The notes below the pieces were generated by a model. It was given only the letters and a program-made list of their open reading frames with translations, was not told the origin of the DNA and did no database searches. A DNA stretch of 64,000 nt from Chiloscyllium plagiosum (taxonomy: Eukaryota): contig NC_057718.1 in the NCBI RefSeq assembly GCF_004010195.1, positions 67,296,588 through 67,360,587 of the forward strand. The letters run 5' to 3'. Below are positions 85-56,015 of the stretch, in pieces (the first letter of the stretch is position 1; each line of letters opens with the position of its first letter). The translations under genes and the position numbers were made by a program.

Positions 85-209
85 GGTGAAAGTGAGCAGA
101 TGCTGGAGATTAGAGTCAAGATTAGAGTGGTGCTTGAAATACACAGCAGGTCAGGCAGCATCCGAGGAGCAGGAAAATCAATGTTTCGGGCAGAAGCCCT
201 TCATCAGGA
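85..209 (-). mobile_element. Short PLE-derived element with hammerhead motif
   Basis: Flanked by the 14-bp direct repeat AAGGAAACAGCCTA (71-84, 210-223). Minus strand reads CTGATGAAGGGCTTCTGCCCGAAACATT. Confidence 0.85.
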
Positions 210-275: not shown

Positions 276-494
276 GTTGAAAATGTGTTGCTGGAAAAGC
301 ACAGCAGGTCAGGCAGCATCCAAGGAGCAGGAGAATCGACGTTTCGGGCATGAGCCCTTCTTTAGGTTCCTGAAGAAGGGCTCATGCCCGAAACATTGAT
401 TCTCCTGCTCCTTGGATGCTGCCTGACCTGCTGCGCTTTTCCAGCAACACATTTTCAGCTCTGATCTCCAGCATCTGCAGTCCTTGCTTTCTCC
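276..494. mobile_element. Inverted pair of short PLE-derived elements
   Basis: Two copies in opposite orientation meet at ~365. 15-bp TSD CATTATAGGACCACC at 261-275 and 495-509. Confidence 0.88.
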
Positions 495-1859: not shown

Positions 1860-3883
1860 AGGTGACCACTGACCTGTGCAGGACATCTAGGTATGATCTT
1901 CACAATGCCATCAGGAAGGGCAAGAGACAATACCAGACTAAACTAGAGTCCCAGACTAAACATACAAAAACACCTTGATTGTGACAAGGCTTACACAATA
2001 TAATGAGCTACAAAACAAAGTCAGGTAGAATTCCTGGCAACAATGCATCCGTCCCTGATGAGCTCAATGCATTCTATGCTCATTTTGAACAGAAAGTCAG
2101 TGAAATTATGTCACCTGTCCTGACAGCCCCGGGTGCACCTATACCACAGTCAGACCACAGACCTCAGATCGGCCTTCTTGAGGGTGAACTCACGGGAAGT
2201 GAACAGCCCGGATGGAGTCCCCAACCATGCACTCAGATCCTGTGTGAACCAGCTGGCTGGAGTATTTGCAGACATATTTAATCTCTGCTTACTACAATGT
2301 GAGGTTCCCACCTGCTTCAAAAAGACCAATATTAACCCAGTGTCAAAGAAAAATCAGGCAACGTGATTTAATGACTACCGTCCAGTGACTAGCATCCATT
2401 CTTATAAAGTGCTTCAAGAGGTTAGCCATGGCGCACATCAATTCCAGCCTCCCAGACTGCCTCGATTCGCTACAATTCACCTAGTGTAACAATAGGTCCA
2501 CGGTAGATGCCATTTGGCCCTACACTCATCGCTGAACATTTGGAAAACAAGGACACTTGCATCGGACTCCAATTTTTTGGCTTTAGCTCTGCCTTCAGCA
2601 ACCAAACTAATTCCAACCAAACTAATCTCCAAACTCCAAGACACAGAACTCTGCTCCCCATTTTGCAACTTGATCCTCGAATTCCTGACCCACAGACCGC
2701 AATCAGTAAAGCTGGTGACAACACTTCCTCCACAATAATCCTCAACACCAGTGCCCACAAGGCTGCGTACCCAGCCCCTTACTATACTCCTAATACACTC
2801 ACAACTGCATAGCTAAATTCAGCTCTAATTTTATTTACAAATTTGCTGATGACAACACCATAGTGGGTCGGATTTAAAGAACGACAAAACAGAGTGTAGG
2901 AAGGAGATAGACAGCTTAATGGCATGATGTAAAGACAGCAATCTCTCTCTCTCTCAGTGACAGTAAAATGAAAGAGCTGCTCATTGACTTCAGGAAGTGG
3001 ATTGGAGGACACACCTCTTTCTATATCAATGGTTCTGAGGTCGAGAGCTTCAAGTTCCTAGGAGTAAATATCACCAATAATCTATTCTGATCCATTCACG
3101 CCAATGCTGCAGTCAAGAAAGCACACCAATGCTCTACTACCTCAGAAGACTAAGGAAATTCAGCCTGTCCACAATGACTCAATTTTAATAGATACACCAT
3201 AGAAAGCATCTTATCCGGAAGCATCCATCCGGAAGTATGGCAACTGCTCTGACCAAGACCGCAAGAAATTATAGAGAGCTGTGAACAGTCTTCCTTCCAT
3301 TGACTCCGTCTACACTACTTCAGGAGAAACAGCCAACATAACCAAAGTCCTCTCCCACCCCAGTTATACTCACTTCCACTCTCTTTCATTGGGTAAAAGA
3401 TACAGAAGTTTGAAAACATGTACCAACAGTTTTAAGAATAGCTTCTTCCCCTCTGTTAACAGACTTATGAGTGGAGTCCCCATATATTAGAGTTAATCTT
3501 TCTTTGCAACCTTTGTGTAGCTAAGACACTATATTCTGTAACAAAAATAGAAATTGCTGGAAAAGCTCAGCAGGTCTGGCAGCATCTGTGGAGAAATCAG
3601 AGTTAACGTTTCGGGTGCAGTGACTTTTCATCATAACTGGATCGAAAATGTAATCTCTGATTTCCCTCCACAGATGCTGCTAGACCTGGTGAGCTTTTCC
3701 AGCAATTTCTGTTTTTGTTACTGATTTCTAGCATCCGCAGTTCTTCCAGCTTTTATACACTACCTTCTGCACTTTGTTCTATTACCCTGATGTACCTATG
3801 GAAGGTATGATTTATCTGGCTAGCATGCAAAACAATACTTCTCATTATATCTCAGTACATGTGACAACAAATAAATCAAATCA
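1860..3883 (+). mobile_element. Rex1/Babar-type LINE, 5'-truncated and decayed RT
   Basis: ORF fragments PDELNAFYAHFE, PDGVPNHALRSCVNQLAGVFADIFNL..VPTCFKKTNINPV and KFADD (~2840). 3' end GTACATGTGACAACAAATAAATCAAATCA. Confidence 0.8.
3540..3755. mobile_element. Inverted pair of a second short PLE-derived family
   Basis: GAAATTGCTGGAAAAGCTCAGCAGGTC and its reverse complement. Degenerate flanking repeat ACACTATATTCTG/ACACTACCTTCTG. A related copy lies at 20330-20493. Confidence 0.7.
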
Positions 3884-6927: not shown

Positions 6928-7650
6928 TTTAAAAATTTATTTTGTGGAATGTAGGTGTGGCTGGCCGGCCAGCATTTATTGTCCATCCCCAGTTGGCCAT
7001 AAGAAGGTGATGATGAGCTGCCATCTTAAACTGCTGCAGTCCACCTGCCGTGGGTTGACCTACAATGCCATTTGGGAGGAAATTCCAGGAATTTGACCCA
7101 GTGCCAGTGAAGAAACGGCAATAGATTTCCAAGTCAGGATGATGAGTGGCTTGGAGGGGAACTTGAAGGTGGTGGTGTTCTCATTTCTAAGTCCTTCTAA
7201 ATCAGAAGTCATACCATGCCAGATTATAATCCAACAGGTTTATTTGAAAGCACAAGCTTGTGATTTTAAATAAATCTGCTGGACTATAACCTGGTGTCAT
7301 GTGACTTCTGACTTTGCCCACTCCAGTTTAACATCGCACCCCCACATCTTGTCCCTCTAGATGGAAGTGATCATAGGTTTGAAAAGTGCTGTTTAAGAAT
7401 CTTTTGTGGATTTCTGCAGTGCATCTTGTAGAAAGTACACACTGCTGGGACTGAGTATCAATGGTGAAGGGAATGGATGCTTATGGATGTAGTGTCAATC
7501 AAGCCAGCCGCTTTGTCCTGGATGGTGTCAAGCCTCTTGAGTGTATTGGGGCTACAATCATCCAGGCAAGTAGGGAGTATTCTATTGCACTCCTGATGTG
7601 GTCAGGCTTTGGAGAGTCAGGAGGTGAGGAGGTAATGTGGGCTATGGTGA
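6928..7650 (-). mobile_element. 3' end of a CR1/L2-type LINE
   Basis: Shares its 3' tail with 24790-25935, 32395-32870 and the SINE at 37520-37880. Confidence 0.6.
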
Positions 7651-8469: not shown

Positions 8470-9262
8470 CCACATAGGAATTAATAAAATAGGTATACCT
8501 GGCAATGAGGCACTGCTGAGAGAATTTGAGGTGTCAGGAGCCAAAATAAAAAGGAAAATGTGAAAAGGAATTCTCCACAAAACATATGAGCAGAAGTAGG
8601 CGAAAGTGGGTACTGCAGATGATGGAGATTAGAGTCAAGATTAGAGTGGTGCTGGAAAAGCACAATGGGTCAGGCAGCATCCAAAGAGCAGGGAAATTGG
8701 CGTTTTGGGCAAAAGCCCTTCATTAGGAGCAGAAGTAGGCTATTCGGCCCATTCAGTATGCCATTTGTTACCTGTTTACCAATCAAGGAGTTAGATGCAT
8801 TTGTAATAAAGATAACATAGTAGTCATGCAATATGTTAATGATTAGACTACTTACAGTGTGGAAACAGGCCCTTCGGCCCAACAAGTCCACACCAACCCA
8901 CAACCCACCCATACCCTTGCACCTTATACTATGGGCAATTTAGCATGGCCAATTCACCAGGTAACAAATGGCATACTGAATGGGCCGAATAGCCTACTTC
9001 TGCTCCTGATGAAGGGCTTTTGCCCAAAACGCCAATTTCCCTGCTCTTCGGATGCTGCCTGACCCACTGTGCTTTTCCAGCACCACTCTAATCTTGACTC
9101 TAATCTCCATCATCTGCAGTACCCACTTTCGCCTACTTCTGCTCATATGTTTTGTGGAGAATTCCTTTTCACATTTTCCTTTTTGTTTTGGCTCATGACA
9201 CCTCAAATTCTCTCAGCAGTGCCTCATTGCCAGGTATACCTATTTTATTAATTCCTATGTGG
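8470..9262. repeat. 305-bp inverted duplication (8470-8774 and 8958-9262)
   Basis: Direct reverse-complement comparison shows about 5 substitutions and a 183-bp spacer. Confidence 0.95.
8602..8726 (-). mobile_element. Short PLE-derived element
   Basis: 14-bp TSD GAGCAGAAGTAGGC at 8588-8601 and 8727-8740. Confidence 0.85.
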
Positions 9263-12684: not shown

Positions 12685-13015
12685 GGAAGGTCAGGCTGCA
12701 TCCGAAGAGCAGGAGAATCGACGTTTCAGAAATAAGCCCTTCAGCAGGAATGTGGACAGGGAAGGGAGCTGAGAGTTAAGTATGGGGGTGGCGGTGNNNN
12801 NNNNNNNNNNNNNNNNNNNNNNNNNNNNNNNNNNNNNNNNNNNNNNNNNNNNNNNNNNNNNNNNNNNNNNNNNNNNCTGGGATGAGGTGGGAGGCGGGGA
12901 GATTTGGAAACTAATGAAGTCGATGTTGATGCTGTGTGGTTGTAGGGTTCCAAGGTGGACGATGAGGCGCTCTTCCTCCAGTTGTCGGGTAGCTTTGATT
13001 TGGCATTGGAGGACA
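12685..13015 (-). mobile_element. PLE 3' fragment spanning an assembly gap
   Basis: Minus strand ATRQLEEERLIVHLGTLQPHSINIDF matches the C-terminus at 43612-43870. Degenerate hammerhead module at 12716-12750. Confidence 0.75.
12797..12876. other. Assembly gap (80 N)
   Basis: Run of N characters. Confidence 1.
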
Positions 13016-13101
13016 TGTGTCCCAGAGATGTTTATTCCCCAATTGAACTTCCTCCTATTTTTCTCTCATGTACCTCTACTACTATAATCATTTATATTTA
13101 T

Positions 13102-18575: not shown

Positions 18576-19099
18576 TAGAGTCATTGGGATGTGGTGAAAG
18601 TGAGGACTGCAGATGTTGGAGATTAGAGTCGAGAATATGGTACTGGAAAAGCACAACAGGTCAGCCAGCATCCAAGGAGCAGGAGAATCTATGTTTCTCC
18701 TGCTCAATTTTTCAGCACCACACTCATAACTCATTGGAATGTGAGACAGGTTTTGACACAGTCACTGAGGCTGTTGGTTCGCCTCAGGGAGAAAATCTGC
18801 TGATTTTGCCCAAGACCTCCGCAGTGCCAGAGGAAACCAGAATAACATTAGCAAACTACTGGCTGAGAACTTGGGACAGGGCTGCTCCTCGCTTTATCAT
18901 GCTGATATAGTTTGGAAACTTGAGGTCGTTTGGGAAAGGGGAATGCTCCTTTTCTGAGAGGCAGAAAAGGTCACTTCATCGTGCAGCAAAGGCACTACTC
19001 TGTTCAGCTACATTTCCTTCCACATCCTCTCCCTTCTTGTTTCTCACCTTTTTCTCCTGCTCCTCACTGGATGAGCTGTCTTTATTCGGCCTGTCACCA

Positions 19100-20329: not shown

Positions 20330-20493
20330 TGCAGATGCTGTGGATCAGAAATAAAAATAGAATTTGCTGGAAAAGCTCAGCAGTCTGGCAGCATCTGTGC
20401 AGAGAACTCAAAGTTAACTTTTCGGGTTCAGTGACCCTTCCTCAGAATACCTTCCAGGCCTGCTGAGCTTTTCCAGCAACTTCTGCTTTTGCT
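20330..20493. mobile_element. Short PLE-derived element with partial inverted copy
   Basis: Same family as 3540-3755. Minus strand CTGAGGAAGGGTCACTGAACCCGAAAAGTTAAC. Confidence 0.7.
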
Positions 20494-27206: not shown

Positions 27207-27429
27207 AGATTAGAGTAGTGCTGGAAACGTACCGCAGGTCAGGCAGTGTCCAAGGAGCAGGAAAATCAACGCTTCGGGCAAAAGCCCTTCATCAGGAATC
27301 CTAATGAAGAGCTTTTGCCCGAAACATTGATTTTCCTGGTTCTCGGATGCTGCCTGATCTGCTGTGTTTTTCCAGCACTACTCTAATCTTGACTCTAAGC
27401 TCCAGCATCTGCAGTACCCACTTTCGCCT
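27207..27429. mobile_element. Inverted pair of short PLE-derived elements
   Basis: 14-bp TSD GATAGAT(G/A)CAGTAA at 27193-27206 and 27430-27443. Confidence 0.88.
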
Positions 27430-28551
27430 GATAGATACAGTAACACAGATAGAGTGAGTATGCCTTTTCAGAGAGAAAGTGGTTGCACTTAAGCTGGTAG
27501 ATTGTAGAAAGGCATTCATTTCTTCCTACAGTTCTAGGCATTCCTCCAAATGGCTGAGACTGCCATACCTGGGTGAAAGAGAGAGACATGGATTTCTCCC
27601 TGTCTGCCACAACTGGGCAAATGTCAGGAATTGTGCAGGTCAGATCTGCACTGATAGCACTTGCCTGGGTGCACTTCGAACTTTTAAAGGTAGCATGGCT
27701 GCAAAGAATGATAGTGAATTCTGGGATATTCACTGAGTCATGAGTTGTTCTGGGAGTGATGCGGGATAAGATGGGACAGAAATTGGATGTGACAGATACC
27801 ATAGGGGTTTGGTGGGTAATTAATAGGACAGATTTGGCAAGATACAATAAGAGAACGTGTTAGTGGTTGAAGCAAGAAACCCTTCAAAAACTTGATGAAA
27901 CTTCGATTCAGCCAAAAATACCTAAGATCCAGCTCTTAATGTCTGCAGAGCAACCATAAGGCCCATGGACACTGTCGGCCCCTATATCCCTGACATTTTA
28001 CAGGCATGGTGGTGAACACATTTCCAGATAAAGCTCATGCTAAAGTGCATGAGGAGCCAACAGAAGTGTCTGTGTGAGTGACGAAAGAATCTGAAGATGT
28101 TATCTATTCTACAACCTATGGATTCTCTGTTTATGGGGATATGTATAAAGGACAATTGAATGAGTAGTAAAACTTCATAAGGCCATTTCAGAATGCTTAA
28201 AACTCCCTATATGATTTTGAAGTGGACAATTCATTTTATTTGGATTGTCACATGTTGGACTGTGTGAAGAATTTTCAAAATATATTATTATTATTTGGGA
28301 ACTCAGGTTCTAAAGTGGAGGAAACATGGATTTTAATTTTCAGTTCTGTGAAGATCTGATTTGTCTTATTATAATTGAGAAAGTCATTTTGAACAGTTAG
28401 GTCAAAACAACCAACTGCAAGAATTTGTGTGATTTTAGATAAATGACCAGTGAGCCACTCCTTTGCTGACTTTCATTTTACAACCTCAAGAGTAAGGGGA
28501 AAGGTGCAAACGCAGGTTCATGAAGAAAGAAAATGTCCATAGCAGAAAATG

Positions 28552-28779
28552 AGCCAAGATTAGAGTGATGCTGGAAAAGCACAGCAGGTCAGGCAGTATC
28601 TGCGGAGCAGGAAAATTGACATTTCGGGCAAAAGCCCATCATCAGAAAAGCCCTGATGAAGGGCTTTTGCCCGAAACGTCGATTTTCCTGCTCCTCGGAT
28701 GCTGCCTGACCTGCTGTGCTTTTCCAGCACCACTCTAATCTTGACTCTAATCTCCAGCATCTGCAGTACCCCACTTTTG
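28552..28779. mobile_element. Inverted pair of short PLE-derived elements
   Basis: Perfect 14-bp TSD CATAGCAGAAAATG at 28538-28551 and 28780-28793. Confidence 0.9.
28653..28680 (+). ncRNA. Minimal type I hammerhead ribozyme core (best-preserved copy)
   Basis: CTGATGA, extra A, stem II GGGC-TTTT-GCCC, GAAAC, GTC. All core nucleotides are present, with predicted cleavage after C28680. The stem I 5' arm is truncated in this copy. Confidence 0.7.
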
Positions 28780-30029
28780 CATAGCAGAAAATGTGTTATT
28801 ACTAGCAATCTCCATACAGTCAGGGCTAGGGTGAAGTATGAGCAGAAAGTTCCAGAAACAGAAGGCTGTGAAGGTGTCAGAGATGTGTCAACTTACATTG
28901 ATGTCAAGGCATGTACTTAAGGAACCTATGTTAGGTAATAAGTGAGTTGAGTTAGGATTTGTTTTGAGGGTCTTGGGGTGAGACTTTAACCAAATAATCT
29001 AGTAAATGCACAACAATTACAGCTGTACCAATGGAGCAATAAGCTTTAGCATGGACAGATTGATGACTGCTCTTTAAGTTTTAAGTGTCTAAGATCATTG
29101 CTGAACTAAAAGGGATTGGTCTTTCTTGTTGTTATTTGTAATGAAATTGTCCCAGAAGCTCTTGTAGATATTTTCTTAAATCAACCTGCTCAGAGATGTT
29201 ATTACACACCTCTAGAACAGGGGAGACTCAAACCTATGCCTCCTTGTCCAGAGGTAAGGACACTATCACCGCACCATAAGAGCCTTCCATTGGCTCTTGA
29301 ATAATTTGATTAAAAGTACAGGAAGCCTGAGAATATGTCAGTGACTGACCTCCATGGTAAACAAAAGAAAAATAAAACTTATGGCCTATCAAGCCAAATT
29401 CTACACAGGGATCTGACTTGTCCATTATTAGAAATAGCCAGAATCATAGCAATTGCTTTTACATCCCTAACTTACTGGAAATTATACTGGAAATTTCTGT
29501 AGACCATGTAATTTGTGTGTTTCATTTATTTTATGCCTGGTTTGTAATGTTTGGGTTTTTTGTGTATCTGAAGTTAATAATTAGCTTAAGTATTTCTGTA
29601 GTCGTAGTGCTTTCTTCAAAAACATTTTGTGAGAGCCACTTTGACTGCACTAATGGTTTTTTCTTATTTTAGAATATTTTACAAATTAGCAAGGTGAACC
29701 ATTGTGATTTAAGGCTTGTTTGAAATTTCTAGACAAAGGGTTGTTGTTTAAGTTTAGGAGAAATGCACGTAGCTTAGAGCGAGAGAGACTTCTTTTCAGT
29801 TTTACTTTGTTTTGGACAGTCCTTAGGTGGAGATGGCTCTATGGAGCAGTGTTTCTGAAAAACGAAAATATAACAAAATAAGGTAATGGGTAACCAGTCC
29901 TATAGTTATGTTTCCGACCTCCAACATATTTGGAAGGTGTTTGCAGTTTCACCCAGAATATTATGACTGCAGCTAATGAGTGGTTCCAATTTACTGGTGA
30001 TTCTTACTTCCAGCTGTTTGAGAAAACCA

Positions 30030-30221: not shown

Positions 30222-31470
30222 TTTTTAATTTCAAAAATATACTTTATTCATAAAATAATTTTGATATCTATACAATTGGTGATGCCATACATACATATAC
30301 ATTACATTTCTTTACATACAGAGATCGGAATTAATCATTCGTATATACAAGTCTGTACATTGACCATCCAGGTATTTAGCTGAGGTGTCAGCGGGGCCCG
30401 ATTACTGAGTGGGCCTCCTGTTCTTCTTAGGCAGGCAGACCTTACATGGTGGTCTTTCCCCACCGTGCTTTGGCGGCAGCTGCCCCAAGCTTCAGCGAAT
30501 CCCTCAACACGTAGTCCTGGACCTTGGAATGTGCCAGACCTTGGAATGTCTCAGTTGGGGTCAACTCCTTCAGTTGGAAGACCAAAACCCAAACATTACA
30601 AACCAGGCATAAAATTCAGTCTGACTGAATTGATGATCCTCCAGGCACAGTTGATGTTTGTCTCGGTGTGCGTCCTGGGGAACAGACCGTAGAGCATGGA
30701 GTCCCGCGTCACAGAGCTTCTCGGACGAACCTCGACAAACACCACTGCATTCCTCTCCAGACTTCCTTTGCATCGGCACATTCCAGAAGGAGATGTGTGA
30801 CAGTCTGGTCCCCTCCACAGCCGCTTCGGGGGCAGCATGCAGTGTGGCAGAGAGTCCGGGCATGCATAATGGATCTCACAGGCAGAGCCCTTCTCACCAC
30901 CAGCCAAGCCATGTCTTGGTGCTTGTTGGAAAGTTCTGGCGATGAGGCATTCTGCCAAATGACTTTGACAGTCTGCCCAGGAAACGGCTCGACAGGATCC
31001 GCCCTCTCCTTTTCCCGAAGGGTCTCAAGGACACTATGTGCTGACCACTTCCTGATGGACTTGTGGTCAAAGGTGTTTTTCTTCATAAATTTCTCCATGA
31101 AGGACAGGTGATACAGAACGGTCCAACTACTTGAAGCATTCCGTGGCAGCGGGGCCAGGCCTATCCTTCGCAACACCAGGGACAGGTAGAACCTCAGTAC
31201 ATAGTGACACTTGGTGTTTGCGTACCAGGGATCCACGCATAGCTTGATGTAGCCACACACAAAGGTGGCCATCAGGGTGAGGGTGGCATTGGGTGTGTTT
31301 TGTTTGCCCAGATCTTTATACATCGAGTCCCTTTGGACCCGTTCCATCTTTGATCTCCACATAAAGTGGAAGTTGGCCTGGGTGACTGCGGTGGCACAAG
31401 TTCTGGAAATAGGCCAGACCCGTGCCACATAAAAGAGCAATGACAGTGCCTCACACCTGATGACCAGGTT
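30222..31470 (-). mobile_element. Tx1/L1-clade LINE 3' portion
   Basis: The 243-aa ORF contains LPVRSIMHARTLCHTACCPRSGCGGDQTVTHLLLEC (post-RT Cys/His motif). 3' end ATGAATAAAGTATATTTT followed by poly-A. Confidence 0.85.
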
Positions 31471-31751
31471 TTTTATAGAAGAAAGACGAGTGTAGTAAAT
31501 GTCACAGTGGCTGAGAAAGAACTTATCGAGTAACTGTGGAGTGAGGGGGTTAACAATACCTTTTAGCTAAGAGTAACTGTTGAGCATGTGTGTAAGGAAT
31601 TGTAGAAAACAGATCACATGGAAATGGAGACTAGCTTTCCAGATAATATACTCTCTTAATATCCCTTGCATAAAGCTATGTTTAATAAAATCTGTTAACA
31701 TTCATCTACCTGAGTGTGAATCTGATTTTACAATCGTAACAGATCGTAATT

Positions 31752-36662: not shown

Positions 36663-36867
36663 GGGAGAAAGTGAGGACTGCAGATGCTGGAGATCAGAGC
36701 TGAAAATGTGTTGCTGGACAAGCGCAGCAGGTCAGGCAGCATCCAAGGAACAGGAGAATCGACGTTTCGGGCATAAGCAGTAAGGAGGGCTTATGCCCGA
36801 AATGTCGATTCTCCTGTTCCTTGGATGCTGCTTGACCTGCTGCGCTTTTCCAGCAACACATTTTCAG
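36663..36867. mobile_element. Inverted pair of short PLE-derived elements
   Basis: Perfect 14-bp TSD CTTTTGATACCTCA at 36649-36662 and 36868-36881. Confidence 0.9.
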
Positions 36868-40486: not shown

Positions 40487-40673
40487 TGATGTGGAGATGC
40501 CAGTATTGGACTGGGATGAACAAAGTCTGAAGTCACACAACACAACAAGTTTTTGATACCCCAAGCTTTTGGAGAATTGCTTCTTTGTCACCTGACAAAG
40601 GAGCAGCGCTTTGAAAGCTTGTGATTTCAAATAAACCTGACCGGCTATAACCTGGTGTTGTGTGACCTCTAAC
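40487..40673. mobile_element. Short PLE-derived element, third family (also ~7205-7350 and 54245-54345)
   Basis: Partial inverted structure. Degenerate hammerhead CTGACAAAGGAGCAGCGCTTTGAAAGCTT at 40592-40620. Confidence 0.55.
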
Positions 40674-41042
40674 TTAGTTTTTGAATGATGTTCTCTGAAC
40701 AGTCAACAAAAATGAAGGCTAATACCTGAGGATAAAAGCTTACGTTGGCCAGGCGGTTTCTTCTTCTTGATGTCTTCTCCATAATTACAAATGGGGTGGG
40801 GGGGGTGGCGCATGACTTTGCGAATGTTGCTGTCTGGAGTTTTTGCTGATGGTATACCAAAATCTTTCATCTTTATCCTTTTTCCTTACCTTTCAAAACT
40901 GTGGGGTTTTGTTCTTATTGGTTCCTGGCTCATCTGAGCACCGGTGGCTTTCCATGATAGACTCACTCCAAGGCCTTTAGGATTACCTCATTATTCATTC
41001 TCCAGATAGGACCTGCACCCTATGTCATTCCTCTGAACTGAT

Positions 41043-41441
41043 CTGGTTTGAGCCAGCCCAAGCCAATGGCTGGGACTCAGGTAACTTCAGTTCTCAAGCT
41101 TGCTGTTTTTATGTGTGAGCAGCCCCTGGTCAACGGCAGAATCCTGCCTAACAATAAGTCCTCACTGGCAGTATTAATTGGCCTAATTTATCTTTACCTG
41201 AAAAGATTTAGCCCTACAGAAACTTAAGTGATAATTTCACCTGGTTTGAGCCAGCCCAAGCCAATGTCTGGGACTCAGGTAACTTCAGTTCTCAAGCTTG
41301 CTGTTTTTATGTGTGAGCAGCCCCTGGTCAACAGCAGAATCCTGCCTAACAATAAGTCCTCACTGGCAGTATTAATTGGCCTAATTTATCTTTACCTGAA
41401 AAGATTTAGCCCTACAGAAACTTAAGTGATAATTTCACCTG
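41043..41441 (+). repeat. 198-bp tandem duplication
   Basis: 41043-41240 versus 41241-41438, two substitutions seen, CTG at the junctions. Confidence 0.97.
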
Positions 41442-43104: not shown

Positions 43105-43315
43105 AAGACCTATCACCTTCTCCCTGACCTCCATCAATCTATCACACTCTCAGATACTTTCCCCGCAGCCCCACCCCCTCCCTCCCATTTACCTCTCACC
43201 TCCTCGGCTCATAAGCCTCATTCCTGATGAAGGGCTCTTGCCTGAAACCTCGATTCTCCTGCTCCTCGGATGCTGCCTGACCTGCTGTGCTTTTCCAGCA
43301 CCACACTCTCGAAAC
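43105..43315 (+). mobile_element. PLE 3' end with hammerhead module
   Basis: C-rich 3' UTR followed by CATTCCTGATGAAGGGCTCTTGCCTGAAACCTCGATTC. Confidence 0.75.
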
Positions 43316-43610: not shown

Positions 43611-44221
43611 GATGTGGTCTCCTCGACATCGGGGAGATAGGACGTCAACTCACGGAGCATTTCAGGGAACATCTCTGGGACACATGCACCAAACACCCCA
43701 CCACTTCCTGTGTCTGACCACTTCCCTGTCCCACTCTCCCAATATCATGCAAGTCCTAGGCCTCCTCCAACGGCAAATCAAAGCCACCCGACAACTGGAG
43801 GAAGAACGGCTAATCTTCCACTTTGGGACCCTTCAACCACAAGGCATCAACATCAACTTCAGTGGTTTCCAAATCTCCCCCCACCTCATCTCAGATTCAA
43901 CCCCCCACTTCAGCACCGCTGTCTTGACCTGTCCTACTTGTCCATCTTCTTCCCACCTATACATTCCATCCTCCCCACCGACGTATCACAATTACCCTGC
44001 ACTTGCATCCACTTCTCGCCTTCCCACTGACCTTACACCCAGCCTCACCCCACACCCCAATTTATCTCTCATCCCCCTTCGGCTTCCACATTCCTGATGA
44101 AGAGCTTATGCCCAAAACGTTGACTCTCCTGCTCCTTGGATGCTACATGACCTGCTGAGCTTTTCTAGTGTCACCCTTTTCAACTCTGACTCTCCAGTAT
44201 CTGCAGTCCTCACTTTCTCCT
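43611..44221 (+). mobile_element. PLE 3' fragment (GIY-YIG endonuclease C-terminus, 3' UTR, hammerhead module)
   Basis: CGLLDIGEIGRQLTEHFREHL...ATRQLEEERLIFHFGTLQPQGININF. Flanking repeat GGTTATGATC (43601-43610, 44222-44231). Confidence 0.85.
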
Positions 44222-46539: not shown

Positions 46540-48250
46540 GGTTAATTGTCCAGTCTGGTTTCCCACATTCACCATCAGCAATCATTAGCTAATGAGTATG
46601 ATTGTCCACTAAGAAAGTGTCACATATCACTGTTTATGGGTTCTGTGAATCCTTGTGTGTCTGATGAACCTGATTGTAGAGCCACTTCTGCGACCACACA
46701 TTTATCAGATGTTTCCGGAGGTTTCTTTGCATTCCTTTCTCCAGTTTTTTTTCTTGCCAGTGGGTTTTGCCAAAGACTGATGCCCCTTCATAGGAGAGTT
46801 TCCTCCAAGTCAGTTTTTTCTAAATGAGGATCTCGCAAGTATTGACATCTTTGTTGCATTTCTGAAGGGAAGTCTTCAGTGAGTCTTTGCAGCACTTTTG
46901 TTTTCCTCTCATTCAAATATTTCCTTCAGGTGAACAAAAAAGTTTTGCTTTGACATCCTAACTTAGTCATCCTAAGCATGTGGCAAAAGTGAGGACTGCA
47001 GATGCTGGAAACCAGAGTCTAGATTAGAGTGGTGCTGGAAAAGCACAGCAGGTCAGGCAGCATCCAAGGAGCAGGAAAATCGACGTTTCAGACAAAAGTA
47101 CGTGCGAAACACGTGGCCCACTCAATGAAATTGGTTTCAGCTGATCCGGACTCAGTGCTAGTCCTGTTGGCTATTTCAAGGACACTGATGCTAGTATACC
47201 TGACCTCTGACTGATGGGGAGTATCGATCGCAAATAAACATGTTCGATGTTTGGGAGGATTTCTCTATTATCTTAATGGTGAGATGAACTGGGACTTGAG
47301 TCTTTAGGTTGAGACTGAGACCAGTTCTTCAGTTTGCTTTTGCAAAGACATTAATCGAAGTTTGAAGACTCTCTTCCAAGAGAGTAGAGATGATGTTGTT
47401 AAGCACGCACTGAAGTTTCTTGAGAAAGGTTGGTGTCTTTCTTTTTGGATTTCAACCAGTTTATGTGAACAGTTTTCCGTCCATCCTGTAGACAGTGTCC
47501 ATACCACTGTAAGCCTTGTTCTTGCTGATGAAAAATGGTGACAGTGACACATGCCTGCTTCATCCTGTCTTGATCTCAAAGGTTCCATCATTTTACAGTG
47601 AGTGCAGGCTGTCTTCGACATTTTGTCATGGAAGAGACAGAGCATTTTGATGATTTTTCTCTGAACAGCTGACCTTTGACCGGATCTTCCATAGATAGCA
47701 CTTCCCAGTTGACCTGGTAAAATTGACAAAGGCCATGTAGAGCAGTTGTTTTGTTTCTAGCATTGCTCTTGGAGTTGCTGAGCAGTGAAAATCATATCCA
47801 TAGTTCCATGGCTTGGTTGGAAGCTGCACTGGCTTTTGGGAAAGATTTCCTCAGAGACTAAGAGAAGGCGCCTAGCGAGGACTCGGGTGATGATCTTCGC
47901 AGCGATGGAGAATAAGGAGTTTCCTTGATAGTTCCCACAATCCATTTTATTTCCTTTGTTGAAGAGAGTGGTGATGACAGCATCCCAGAGATATGCAGGG
48001 ATTTCTTCTTGGTTTTCGATTTTCAGGAACAGTTGATGGAGATAATGGTAAGCTCTACTCTTCCAAGTTTGAAATTCCCCACTGGAATCCCATTTATAAC
48101 TGTCCCTTTTCCTGTCTTCATTTGTCTAAGAACAACTTCAACTTCTACCACATTAGGTGGGAGTCCAAAATCATCTTTAATGAGGAGTTGGGGGATTTCC
48201 TCAAACATGTAGATCAGATGTTTGCAAACTTGGATCAATATTCAACATGA
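46540..48250 (-). mobile_element. RTE-clade LINE fossil, with a short PLE insert at ~46985-47095
   Basis: DCGNYQGNSLFSIAAKIITRVLARRL..EEIFPKSQCSFQPSHGTMDMIFTAQQLQEQC and LYMAFVNFT. Confidence 0.85.
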
Positions 48251-49620: not shown

Positions 49621-49654
49621 TTGAGGAAGTTTGTTGTTCAGGTTAAGATTCTGA

Positions 49655-52600
49655 TGTAGCTTTGCTTGCTGAGCTGGAAGGATTTGTTTCAGATGTTTTG
49701 TCACAATGCTAGGTAACATCATCAGTGAGCCTCCGGATGAAGCACTGGTGGCATGGCCTAATTTTATTTGTGTTTAGGTTTCCTTGGGTTGATGATGTCA
49801 TTTCCTGTGATGTCATTTCTCATGGTGATGTCATTTCTTGTTATTTTTCTCAGGGGCAGTAAATAGGATCCAAGTCAATGTGCTTGTTGAATGCCATGCT
49901 TCTCGGAATTCTTGCATGTGTCTCTGTTTGGCTTGTCCTGGGATGGATGTGTTGGCCCAGTCAAAGTGGTGTCCTTTTTCATCTGTATGTAAAGATACCA
50001 GTGAGAGTGGGTCATGTCTTTTTGTGGCTAATTGATATTCATGTATCCTGGTGGCTAGTTTTCTGCCTGTTTGTCCAATGTAGTGTTAGTTACAGTTCTT
50101 GCATGGTACTTTGTAAATGACATTAGTTTTGCTTGTTGTCTGTACAGGATCTTTCAAGTCCATTTAGTGTGTTGGTGGGTTTGTGGGCTACCATGAGGTC
50201 TGAGTAGCGTGGCAGTCATTTCCGAGAGTCATATCCTACCTGCAGGCAAAGGATGCTTGACAGTCATTTTAAATAAAGAGACTACATTGAGAAAGTGAAT
50301 GCACTGCTTGCAGATACCAATACTTACCAATAAGTGGCGATAGAACTTACCCCACAACTAGGCAACCGAATCACAGTCCTACTCAAAAAACCAGAAATCT
50401 GGAGAAATAAATAAGACCGACTTCCAAAAAATGAAACCAGATGGATCCAACACTCCACCCTCCTATGGATTACCCAAAATTCATAAACCAGGAGATCCCC
50501 TCAGACACATAGCCTCGCTACCTCGAACACCAACTTACAGGTTGGCCAAAGAGCTACATCAAAGACTAAAACACTTAGTAGATGACTCACGCCACTCCAT
50601 CCACTCCACCCAATAATTCCTGAAGACTATCAAAGACACCAAGATAGAAGAGGATGAAACAATGGTCTCCTTTGATGTAACAGCCCTGTTCACATCCATC
50701 AACATCAACCTGGCCAAGGAAACACTGACTATTCTATTAGAAGATCCAAAGACACATATACCAAACACTACCAACTTCATCAGCACAAACAATATCGTCA
50801 AGCTGGTGGACCTATGTCCTTTTACTCACTTCATCCTCAACAACAAAACCAATGGACAAACCAGTGGAACACCCATTGGATCTACGATATCAGGATTCTT
50901 TGCGGAGGCAGTAATGCAGAGACTCGAACAAACAGCTCTGCCATCCATCCAACCCAAACTTTGGGTCTGCTACGTGGATGACACCTTTGTTATCATAAAA
51001 TGAAACCTTCATGACCATCACCAATACCCTTACTGGCATAAAATTCACTAAAGAGGAGGAAAACAACAATAAACTCCCATTCTTAGATGTCGCAGTAGAG
51101 CAAACAGCCAATGGGGAACTTCAAGCCAGTGTCTACAGGAAAACAACACGTATGGACCAAATACTGTACTACAGAAGCAATCATCCCAACATCTACAAAA
51201 GAAATTGCATTAAAACATTATTTCAATGAGCCACCAAACTGCAGCAGAGGTGCTATTTGGAGACTTACCCCACAAAGGCAGCAGAAGCAGCAGCAGTCTT
51301 CTTGTTGGTGTACAGTCCAACTGCCCGGAGAGGAGGCAGGCAGTGCTGGACAGGGGTGGGGGGGGCGCAGTGCTGGACGTGGGTGGGTGGATGGTGTTGG
51401 ACTGGGTTGAGGGGCAGGCGGGGGGCAGTGTTGGACAGTTGGTGGGGGGCAGTGTTGGACGGGACTGGGGGAGAGCGGTGGGCGGTGTTGGATAGGGACA
51501 GTGTCAGGGGGGGCGGTGTTGAACAGCTGCGGTCAAGGTGCAGTGCAGAAAGACCACCATCTAAGGGCTTTTGTCCAAAGTACAATGGGGGTCTGCTCAG
51601 TTATCGAACTCTACCAGTATTTAAAATTTTGAGAAAGTTTGTTGTTCGGGTTGAATGTAGGTTTGCTTGCTGAGCTGGAAGGATTGGTTTCAAATGTTTT
51701 GTATTTATGTGTTTAGGTTTCCTTGGGTTGGTGATGTTATTTCCTGAGGTGATGTCATTCTCGTGGTGATGTCATTTCCTGTTCTTTTTCTCGGGGGGGT
51801 AAATAGGATCCAAGTCAATGTGTTTATTGATAGAGTTGGGGGGGTGCGCTATGTGCTGCTGCAGTCTTCTGAATGGGGAGCAGACTTTAAAAACTCCGAG
51901 GCCCAGAGGAAAGGCATTTAATCGATTAACCGAATAATCGATTACCCGAACGAAATACTGTCCGCCCATCTTGTTTGGATAATCGAGGCTCGCCTGTATT
52001 CAAAGAGAACGGATACCCAGAGAACACAGTCCACCAATTTCTCAGCAACAAACCCAAACAAGCAGACAAAACACGTCCAGAAACCCTAACCACTCTCCCC
52101 TACATCAAAGACATCTCGGAAATGACTGCCAGACTACTCAGACCTCTTGGCATCATAGTAACCCACAAACCTACTAAAACAGCAGCTAATGAACTTGAAA
52201 GAGCCTGTACAGACAACAAGCAAAACTAATGTCATTTACAAAATACCATGCAAGAACTGTAACAAACACTACATTGGATAAACGGGCAGAAAACTCGCTA
52301 CCAGGAGAAATAACATCAACTAGCCACAAAAAGAAATGACCCATTCTCACTAGTATCTTTACATACAGATAAGGAAGAACACCACTTCGACTAGGACAAC
52401 ACATCCATCCCAGGATAAGCCAAAGAGAGAAGTGTAAGAATTCCAAGAAGCATGGCATTCCAACCAGAACTCTATCAACAAACACATTGACTTGGATCCC
52501 ATTTACCACCCCCTCAGAAAAATAACAGGAAATTACATTACCACAAGAAATGACGTCACCACAGGAAATGATGTCATCAACCCAAGGAAACCTAAACACA

Positions 52601-52720
52601 TAACTAAAAAGCAGGCCATACCAACAGTGCTTTATCCAGAGGCTCACTGATCATGTTACCTAGTATGGTGATGAAGTGTCTGAAAACAAACCTTCCAGCT
52701 CAGTAAGTAAACCTACATCC
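49655..52720 (+). mobile_element. Penelope-like element (RT + GIY-YIG) with inverted 5' segment 49655-50225
   Basis: YGLPKIHKPGDPLRHI, MVSFDVTALFTSI, GTPIGS, WVCYVDDTF, LPFLDV, VYRKTT and NVIYKIPCKNCNKHYIG*TGR. 49655-50225 is the reverse complement of the element's 3' part. Confidence 0.92.
51250..51998. mobile_element. pogo/Tigger-like non-autonomous DNA transposon, one end visible
   Basis: Ends ...TTTGGATAATCGAGGCTCGCCTG followed by TA, where the Penelope sequence resumes. This resembles Tigger-type TIRs (CAG...CTCGATTATCC). No left TIR was found. Confidence 0.55.
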
Positions 52721-55267: not shown

Positions 55268-56015
55268 GGTCCACATCCCACCACCAACCACTCGCCACTC
55301 CCAGCACTTTCCCTTGCCACTGCAAGAGGTGTAAAACTTGCCCGCACCTCTCCCCTCACCTCCGTCCAAGGCCCCAAACGATTCTTCCAAATTGAGCAGA
55401 GATTTTCCTTCACATCCAAACATGTCATCGACTGTATCTGTTGCTCTTGATGTGGTGTCCTCTACATTGGGGAGACAGGACGCAAACTTGCAGAATATTT
55501 CAGAGAACATCTCTGGGATACAAGCACCAACAAACCTACCGGCCTGTGGCCGACCACTTCAACTCCCCCTTCCATTCTGTCAAGGACATGCAAGGCCTGG
55601 GCCTCCTCCACCGGCAAATCCATGCCACCCGACGCTTGGAGCAAGAACGCTTCATCTTCCGCCTTGGGATGCTCCAACCACATAGCACCAATGTCAACCT
55701 CACCAGTTTCCTCATCACCTCTCCCCTCACCTCATCCCAGATCCAACCCGACAACTCCACACCGCCCTCTTGAACTGTCCTACTTGTCCATCTTCCTTCC
55801 CACCTATCCATTCCAATCTCCTACTACCTCTCACCATAATACCCACCTGCAGTTCCTATCACCTTCCCAGTTACCTCACCTTCACCCACAGCCACCTTCC
55901 CCCCGCCCCACCCCCACTACATTCCTGATGAAGGGCTTCTGGCCAAAACGTCGAATCTCCTGCTCCTCGGATGCTGCCTGACCTGCTATGCTTTTCTAGT
56001 GCCACACTTTGACTT
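55268..56015 (+). mobile_element. PLE 3' fragment (GIY-YIG, 3' UTR, hammerhead module)
   Basis: FTSKHVIDCICCS*CGVLYIGETGRKLAEYFREH...TRRLEQERFIFRLGMLQP. ATTC-CTGATGA...GTC-GAAT at 55921-55956. Confidence 0.88.

Follow-up and report, generated by a model that had tools for sequence, protein, structure and literature searches.

Minimal hammerhead ribozymes (min-HHRs) are known from the pLTRs of metazoan Penelope-like elements (PLEs), where thousands of mostly solo copies have been described and where Neptune and Poseidon elements are the hosts in fishes (Cervera and De la Pena 2014, PMC4209133). Published PLE inserts comprise an inverted pLTR, an optional 31-bp tail and a target-site duplication (TSD), with head-to-head being the commonest arrangement (Arkhipova et al. 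2013, PMC3846280), and adjacent inverted copies with a one-sided tail of 30-40 bp have been reported as well (Craig et al. 2021, bioRxiv 10.1101/2021.04.23.441226). For the Anolis Poseidon element PAc, unprocessed RNA was the main substrate and the hammerhead cleaved only together with protein (Frangieh et al. 2024, PMC11167929). Non-LTR retrozymes are present in the one chondrichthyan sampled by Li et al. (2026, bioRxiv 10.64898/2026.07.22.740005).

The repeats in the window studied here (the whole stretch of analysed DNA, 64 kb) are very probably short inserts of the terminal module of a Neptune-type PLE, which carry the known minimal hammerhead, likely stem from uncut RNA and are likely silent in the genome (Table 1). 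The hammerhead type, the abundance of solo copies and the architecture of the insertions are already published. In the literature covered, which did not extend to Repbase, Dfam and most subscription journals, we found no description of these families or of such palindromes in sharks, and sharks, Callorhinchus and Leucoraja were not found in the part of the supplement to Cervera and De la Pena (2014) that was covered.

Table 1 Features of the window; positions are those of the whole stretch, and hammerhead cleavage is predicted
Feature	Position	Strand	Remarks
Index insertion, palindrome of two PLE end-pieces, family A	28552..28779	.	opposed arms, one hairpin
Left TSD, 14 bp	28538..28551	+	identical to 28780-28793
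Right TSD, 14 bp	28780..28793	+	identical to 28538-28551
Junction filler, 6 nt	28646..28651	+	complementary to neighbouring stem II/loop
Tail, ~32 nt	28748..28779	+	right arm only; left arm stops at equivalent of 28747
Minimal hammerhead motif	28653..28680	+	sole window arm with all invariant core bases and ACGT palindrome; predicted cut after 28680
Second hammerhead motif, opposite arm	28618..28645	-	core intact, palindrome mutated to ATGT
Solo family-A insertion with tail	85..209	-	14-bp TSD; core intact, palindrome mutated
Family-A palindrome	276..494	.	15-bp TSD; + arm core intact, - arm G5A
Family-B palindrome	3539..3756	.	hammerhead 3634 (-): stem I AGTT/AACT, 5-bp stem II position, C3 mutated
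Solo family-A insertion	8602..8726	-	14-bp TSD; G5A and G12A
Mirror copy of 8602-8726	9006-9130	+	G12A; inside 305-bp inverted duplication
PLE 3' fragment	12688..13065	-	GIY-YIG end, 3' UTR, decayed hammerhead: A6C, stem II broken
Collapsed family-A palindrome	18594..18730	.	arms cut inside/past hammerhead; 13-bp TSD, 1 mismatch
Family-B asymmetric palindrome	20330..20492	.	hammerhead at 20445 (-)
Family-A palindrome	27207..27429	.	14-bp TSD with 1 mismatch; both cores mutated
Family-A palindrome	36663..36867	.	14-bp TSD; core 5' half missing from both arms
Family-A copy with native upstream 3' UTR	43150..43307	+	core intact, ACCT replaces ACGT, no tail; left boundary approximate
PLE 3' fragment	43611..44221	+	GIY-YIG remnant, 3' UTR, hammerhead (G12A), tail, 10-bp TSD
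Family-A arm with tail	46985..47098	-	truncated inside stem II; no clear TSD
Third PLE family P	49641..52720	.	RT 50464-51304 (+); GIY-YIG 52222-52320 (+), 49942-50139 (-)
Decayed family-P hammerheads	49725 (-), 52647 (+)		6-bp stem II
PLE 3' fragment	55300..56014	+	Cys linker, broken GIY-YIG, 3' UTR, hammerhead 55925 (G12A, perfect stem I)

Positions 28653-28680 of the forward strand consist of the core CTGATGA, an extra A, stem II GGGC/GCCC with the loop TTTT, GAAA, CG and TC. The initial annotation had described a hammerhead core with a 4-bp stem II and a GUC site, which the letters match exactly, and copies were found by nhmmer/blastn and in the sequences themselves at all nine further positions it had named. 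Altogether, family A accounts for 12 loci and 17 arms in the window; a mirror copy comes in addition. A loose core pattern matched the window 20 times, compared to 7.07 +/- 2.57 times in shuffled sequences, none of which (0/100) reached 20. A strict descriptor that required the core, stem II and the U16.1-H17 site gave 6 matches, more than expected by chance: 100 dinucleotide shuffles averaged 0.02 matches and never gave more than 1. In the Rfam search at E up to 10, hammerhead models were absent among the 21 matches for the whole window and the 14 matches for 28630-28720. The matches seen were sub-threshold and mostly microRNA hairpins, due to the palindromes, while the missing hammerhead match is probably explained by the absence of helix III.

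The palindrome ACGT replaces helix III, as had been proposed; it is present in the index copy, forms the majority in family A and also occurs in family B, and one of the five core-intact arms of family A keeps it at the 15.1-16.1 segment. The index copy and the family majority satisfy the invariant core CUGANGA...GAAA..UH, stem II and G10.1-C11.1, which holds individually for 5 of 12 arms; stem I of the index copy comprises 1 contiguous pair only. Both the core match and the recurring copies support the claim that a very abundant repeat carries a minimal type I hammerhead of the PLE type, and by its sequence the motif descends from a real minimal type I hammerhead of this kind. It shares with the min-HHRs of Cervera and De la Pena (2014) the type I core, the extra base after A9, G10.1-C11.1, the palindromic 15.1-16.1 segment and a short stem I, as well as the occurrence of several families per genome and of mostly solo copies besides some opposed pairs. 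In contrast to the min-HHRs of that study, family A has a 4-bp stem II and a U.U mismatch in stem I, and opposed copies are only 1-10 nt apart and mask each other, whereas distances of 100-700 bp were described there.

Three hammerhead families with a common core, A, B and P, are present in the window. As read by hand from few copies, the stem I pair 2.1-1.1 is C-G in A, U-A in B and A-U in P, the pair 2.2-1.2 is U-A in A and B and C-G in P, and stem II has a length of 4, 5 and 6 bp, respectively, with differing sequences. No compensatory change was found in stems I and II among 16 arms of family A. Covariation of both stems is seen between the three families and is missing within family A. 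The usual downstream strand of stem I in family A, GATT, results in C-G, U-A, U.U and A-U, i.e. three of four pairs with a U.U mismatch, while one copy of family B forms four of four pairs and family P three contiguous pairs; PLE minimal hammerheads have a stem I of 4-5 bp. The perfect stem I (ATTC/GAAT) reported for copy 55925 does exist, but in that copy alone, where G12 is lost and stem II contains a G-G mismatch; the GAAT variant makes up 0.15% and 10.5% of the summed depth in two DNA runs and 4-6% of the RNA reads. Similarly, the statement that stem II is kept applies to 9 of the 13 arms covering all four pairs, the rest having mismatches or G.U, none of them compensatory.

The element of family P at 49641-52720, which we take to be Poseidon-like, had been overlooked in the initial annotation; its RT and GIY-YIG remnants lie in opposed orientations, and an unrelated GC-rich repeat is located inside it at ~51250-51520. 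The window also contains two imperfect palindromes without a match to families A, B or P (7199-7314 and 40519-40679, 79% and 84% complementary), possibly remnants of another fold-back family, and a near-perfect two-copy tandem with a 198-bp unit (41043-41441, 99%).

The repeats are tied to a PLE because three copies are located behind GIY-YIG fragments that have a long relative with both RT and GIY-YIG. These copies, at 55925 (+), 44094 (+) and 12747 (-), lie ~200-250 nt downstream of frameshifted GIY-YIG fragments, with a Cys linker and a GIY-YIG remnant at 55300-55710 and further GIY-YIG remnants at 43611 and 13065. Within the fragment at 12688-13065, the pyrimidine-rich 3' UTR includes an 80-N assembly gap (12797-12876). 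The translation of 55361-55552, with X at one stop, gave a weak Pfam match to GIY-YIG (E 0.037, 14.8 bits versus a cut-off of 22.6), and with this fragment phmmer retrieved 674 relatives (E up to 0.001). Searches of a protein word index with short pieces of the endonuclease yielded 1 and 4 candidates and no relatives. Among the 150 of the 674 relatives that were listed, two are long (827 and 883 aa) and match at their C-terminus. Relative P0132 contains RVT_1 and GIY-YIG in Pfam, both slightly below the cut-offs, relative P0111 contains GIY-YIG above the cut-off, and both exhibit a CX4CxxC linker and an ADKG motif. A CX2-5CxxC linker before a C-terminal GIY-YIG marks Neptune/Nematis PLEs (Craig et al. 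2021). The repeats appear to represent the 3' end of a PLE that is probably of Neptune type, an assignment based on the linker. Neither an RT of family A nor an intact element was found in the 64-kb window. Other retroelement fragments are located at 30709-31566 (-) and 47757-48125 (-), with a 285-aa frame containing zf-RVT (E 2.5e-08) and with a weak RVT_1 match (E 0.0013).

At the index locus two opposed copies are enclosed within 28552-28779, which had also escaped the initial annotation. The arms 28551-28645 and 28653-28747 are 92% complementary, and the RNA folds into a single hairpin (-177.5 kcal/mol, z -25). The filler between them (28646-28651), which may have originated from a template switch, blocks stem II even if the index arm is isolated (predicted p 0.015). 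In the DNA runs, depth steps and loose ends were observed near 28745 and 28767-28771 in the tail region. Since one contig of the related organism B spans 28754-28945, at least the tail end and the flank are common to both; among the contigs listed for organism C none crosses this region, and an empty insertion site was not seen in B and C. Extra contig depth of ~80-160 at 28840-28885 in the flank, present in both DNA runs, suggests a further low-copy repeat.

With locus boundaries and 5' ends set by eye, a TSD score of at least 10 was obtained for 9 of 15 loci (8 of 14 without the mirror copy), compared to 0 of 150 random site pairs; no clear TSD was present at 6 of the 15 loci tested. Four further family-A palindromes (276-494, 18594-18730, 27207-27429, 36663-36867) are flanked by TSDs of 13-15 bp, the solo copies 85-209 and 8602-8726 have 14-bp TSDs as well, and the tail is restricted to one arm in all five family-A palindromes (5/5). 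This organization resembles that of endonuclease-positive PLEs with their 5'-truncated copies, inverted head-to-head copy, tail at one end, TSD and microhomology junctions (Arkhipova et al. 2013; Craig et al. 2021). Unlike those PLEs, the units described here are only 125-230 bp long and their 5' ends cluster at the 5' edge of the hammerhead, and the TSD is mostly 14 bp as opposed to 8-10 bp in rotifer examples. The region 8470-9262 is a 305-bp inverted duplication (98%), which comprises a solo PLE stub together with its TSD and flanking DNA unrelated to it. The 183 nt between its arms include a piece of another common repeat, and the duplication may have arisen recently by fold-back or may be an artefact of the assembly.

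Five TSD-flanked palindromes of similar size in 64 kb, together with the fold-back joints that are common in two related species, would also suit a 228-bp palindrome that is itself mobile (MITE- or retrozyme-like) and copied as a whole. We regard this as most improbable, since the five centres all differ in sequence and truncation point, the arms come from different subfamilies, the same 14-bp TSD is found on solo copies and longer copies continue into PLE coding sequence. Like the animal non-LTR retrozymes of Li et al. (2026), the repeats are non-coding, PLE-derived and equipped with a type I hammerhead. However, retrozymes are head-to-tail tandems with intact hammerheads in consecutive units, and no head-to-tail tandem units with complete hammerheads exist in the window. 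The DNA runs of the related species contain head-to-tail joints in 23 and 23 contigs, so that dimer-competent tandems may occur elsewhere in related genomes. For the window itself, palindromes made from two short PLE inserts remain our preferred explanation.

When C3 is numbered 0 and the cut +28, the 5' starts of the 17 arms, read by hand, fall at -4 to 0 in 8 arms, far upstream in 4, and at approximately +7, +10, +11, +20 and +30 to +33 in the other 5. C3 is reached by 12 arms, and 8 of them end within the next 5 nt, with a binomial p of 3e-8 for an estimated and 6e-4 for a generous background, arms of one palindrome not being independent in these statistics. At most one of the 17 arms begins near the cut site, and 4 of the 5 shorter arms begin before the cut. 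As the start of 8 of the 17 arms lies 0-4 nt ahead of the core and not at the cut, the template was probably uncut RNA that started there, and templates probably carried the whole ribozyme uncut in most cases. The initial annotation had considered that cleavage could generate the element's RNA ends; for the 5' ends of inserted copies this is not supported, as these 8 starts lie ~30 nt upstream of the cut. Among the 15 of 89 joint rows listed, 11 direct fold-back joints are anchored at 28652, all with partners at 28685-28722, past the cut, a hint that may also be an aligner artefact.

A putative RNA start at -4 is our preferred reading of this boundary. The sequence around -4 is CATT in family A and CAGT in family B. 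This context resembles a polymerase II initiator, a motif of low information content. In a rotifer pLTR, ACATT was called Inr-like (Arkhipova et al. 2013). The boundary might instead be caused by drop-off of the RT at the upstream pyrimidine tract or hairpin, or by an endonuclease cut at ATT in the element's own repeat. The PLE endonuclease from Anolis prefers ATT and cuts a site in its own repeat in vitro (Frangieh et al. 2024), and in family A ATT occupies -4 to -2 and the upstream region is strongly C-rich; family B, however, has AGTT, and of its two long arms one terminates at -2, a weak counter-argument. We consider such an origin rather unlikely, and it would alter the explanation of the boundary only; what the repeat is would stay the same. 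We rejected an intron with its end at stem I, the situation in D. virilis (Cervera and De la Pena 2014), as no AG exists at -6/-5 in the four long copies; in D. virilis the start site is located 46 bp before an intron (PMC2377424), unlike the arrangement we infer here.

Returning to the RNA start at -4, a more far-reaching version is that the element RNA starts at the first base of stem I, in two families an initiator-like A located four bases ahead of the core, that the 95- and 130-nt stubs are complete 5'-end cDNAs and that the hammerhead works as a self-decapping switch; we put this forward as a tentative and doubtful proposal. If true, the two stub lengths would reflect two internal RT start sites, the palindromes would testify to priming at the same time on the two strands of a staggered 14-bp cut, and the hammerhead would remove the first ~32 nt instead of being a tool for making element ends. 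The resemblance to PAc extends to two RT start sites that bound the tail, to the cutting and extension of both target strands, to insertion from uncleaved RNA and to the lack of RNA-seq ends at the cut site (Frangieh et al. 2024). PAc differs in belonging to the Poseidon clade and in having an ORF that begins inside the hammerhead, whereas in the repeats described here the ATG within the core opens only a 17-codon frame.

Are the genomic copies catalytic? All 11 invariant bases are kept in 5 of 12 core-spanning arms, and ACGT in addition in 1 of 12. Non-CpG changes affect 6 of 136 core positions versus 53 of 742 downstream (p 0.35; 16 of 18 arms, without the mirror copy 9005+ and the short arm 18697+), which indicates no significant protection of the core in the 16 arms, at low power. 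In agreement with the initial annotation, CpG changes are among the defects in the decayed cores. The frequencies of G12>A and C11.1>T were 14.7% versus 15.9% in DNA run X10 and 9.2% versus 8.9% in X19, as percentages of summed contig depth, not of copy number, in two related species. G12 decays like the adjacent, non-catalytic C11.1. Three of the five core-intact arms are part of palindromes, and the predicted stem II probability was 0 in the four palindrome arms folded. At the index locus the constrained hammerhead fold (-156 kcal/mol) is 36 kcal/mol worse than the hairpin (-192 kcal/mol), and, taken in isolation, the index arm is predicted to fold into a different hairpin that involves the junction filler. 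In the two solo core-intact arms (208- and 43224+), stem II is predicted to form (p 0.98 and 0.6-0.77); the palindrome is missing and the stem I probability is at most 0.12. No pair of core-intact arms lies close together head-to-tail in the window.

In RNA run X21, 3142 of 12,955,460 records aligned to 28646-28945, in both orientations, and in run X22 none (0 reads). RNA ends after the GUC had been suggested as a sign of cleavage; no position with many molecules beginning or ending was detected in X21, a poly(A) single-cell library that is weak at 5' ends. The depth ratio across the cut was 0.76 for sense reads (from the mate direction) and 0.72 for antisense reads, a weak test of cleavage with copies pooled and ~2% of the run covered. 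G12>A was found in 193 of 1072 sense-oriented reads (18.0%) versus 89 of 824 antisense reads (10.8%). This excess is what cleavage of intact copies would give and argues against silent copies, but non-catalytic CpG sites are equally asymmetric in either direction (28696, 43.6 versus 31.1%; 28697, 14.5 versus 22.7%). Strand-biased A>G or T>C was also seen in the RNA reads at 28709 (23.5 versus 8.1%), 28721 (21.9 versus 6.7%) and 28750 (55.6 versus 26.3%), above the level in the DNA runs (1-8%). This is only a hint of A-to-I editing of hairpins, because the DNA runs are from other species and T>C at 28695 is raised on both strands.

The initial annotation envisaged dense seeding of this genome with catalytic RNA that could act on host transcripts. 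Transcription of the family in both orientations (3142 reads), the core kept in 5 of 12 arms, the sense-biased G12>A and a copy number at which some intact tandems probably exist all favour working ribozymes that cut the host transcripts around them. On the other hand, G12 decays like its neighbour, most cores are mutated, the index copy and other palindrome arms are predicted to be buried, stem I is weak, no ends pile up, and no X21 reads derive from the unique flank of the index locus (28786-28945), which was sampled shallowly. Furthermore, published minimal hammerheads had no activity as monomers and low activity as dimers (Cervera and De la Pena 2014), and that of PAc cleaves only with the element protein (Frangieh et al. 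2024). We therefore think host cutting very unlikely. Because the majority of copies either carry mutations or are predicted to be trapped in long hairpins, cutting of host RNAs by them is unlikely, and, as far as the folding predictions go, the genomic copies are probably catalytically inactive. By analogy with published PLE hammerheads, cleavage of the active element's own RNA is likely.

We propose that the element protein nicks both target strands ~14 bp apart and that reverse transcription is primed at two internal RNA sites ~32 nt apart, which would account for inserts with or without a tail. The cDNAs would extend as far as the 5' end of the RNA, shortly before the core, or come to a halt in stem II. 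Two cDNAs joined to each other would give a palindrome, each one made anew, while a single cDNA joined to the far target end would give a solo copy. A transcript of the palindrome would meet the antisense arm first in either direction, so that a duplex of ~95 bp is predicted to enclose the hammerhead. The ribozyme may be active only in the RNA of the active element, weakly and probably with the element protein or as a dimer.

As a find of catalytic RNA the repeats are ordinary, since abundant, mostly solo minimal hammerheads in PLE terminal repeats were described in 2014. If the RNA does start at stem I, arms of a second class, whose start lies just past the GUC, would be relics of templates that had been cleaved, and the hairpins would supply the transcriptome with double-stranded RNA as a target of editing and silencing. 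The value of these repeats is that they preserve, in very large numbers, traces of how PLEs insert; where the arms end with respect to the core and the cut can be counted genome-wide, which bears on whether cleaved RNA ever serves as template.
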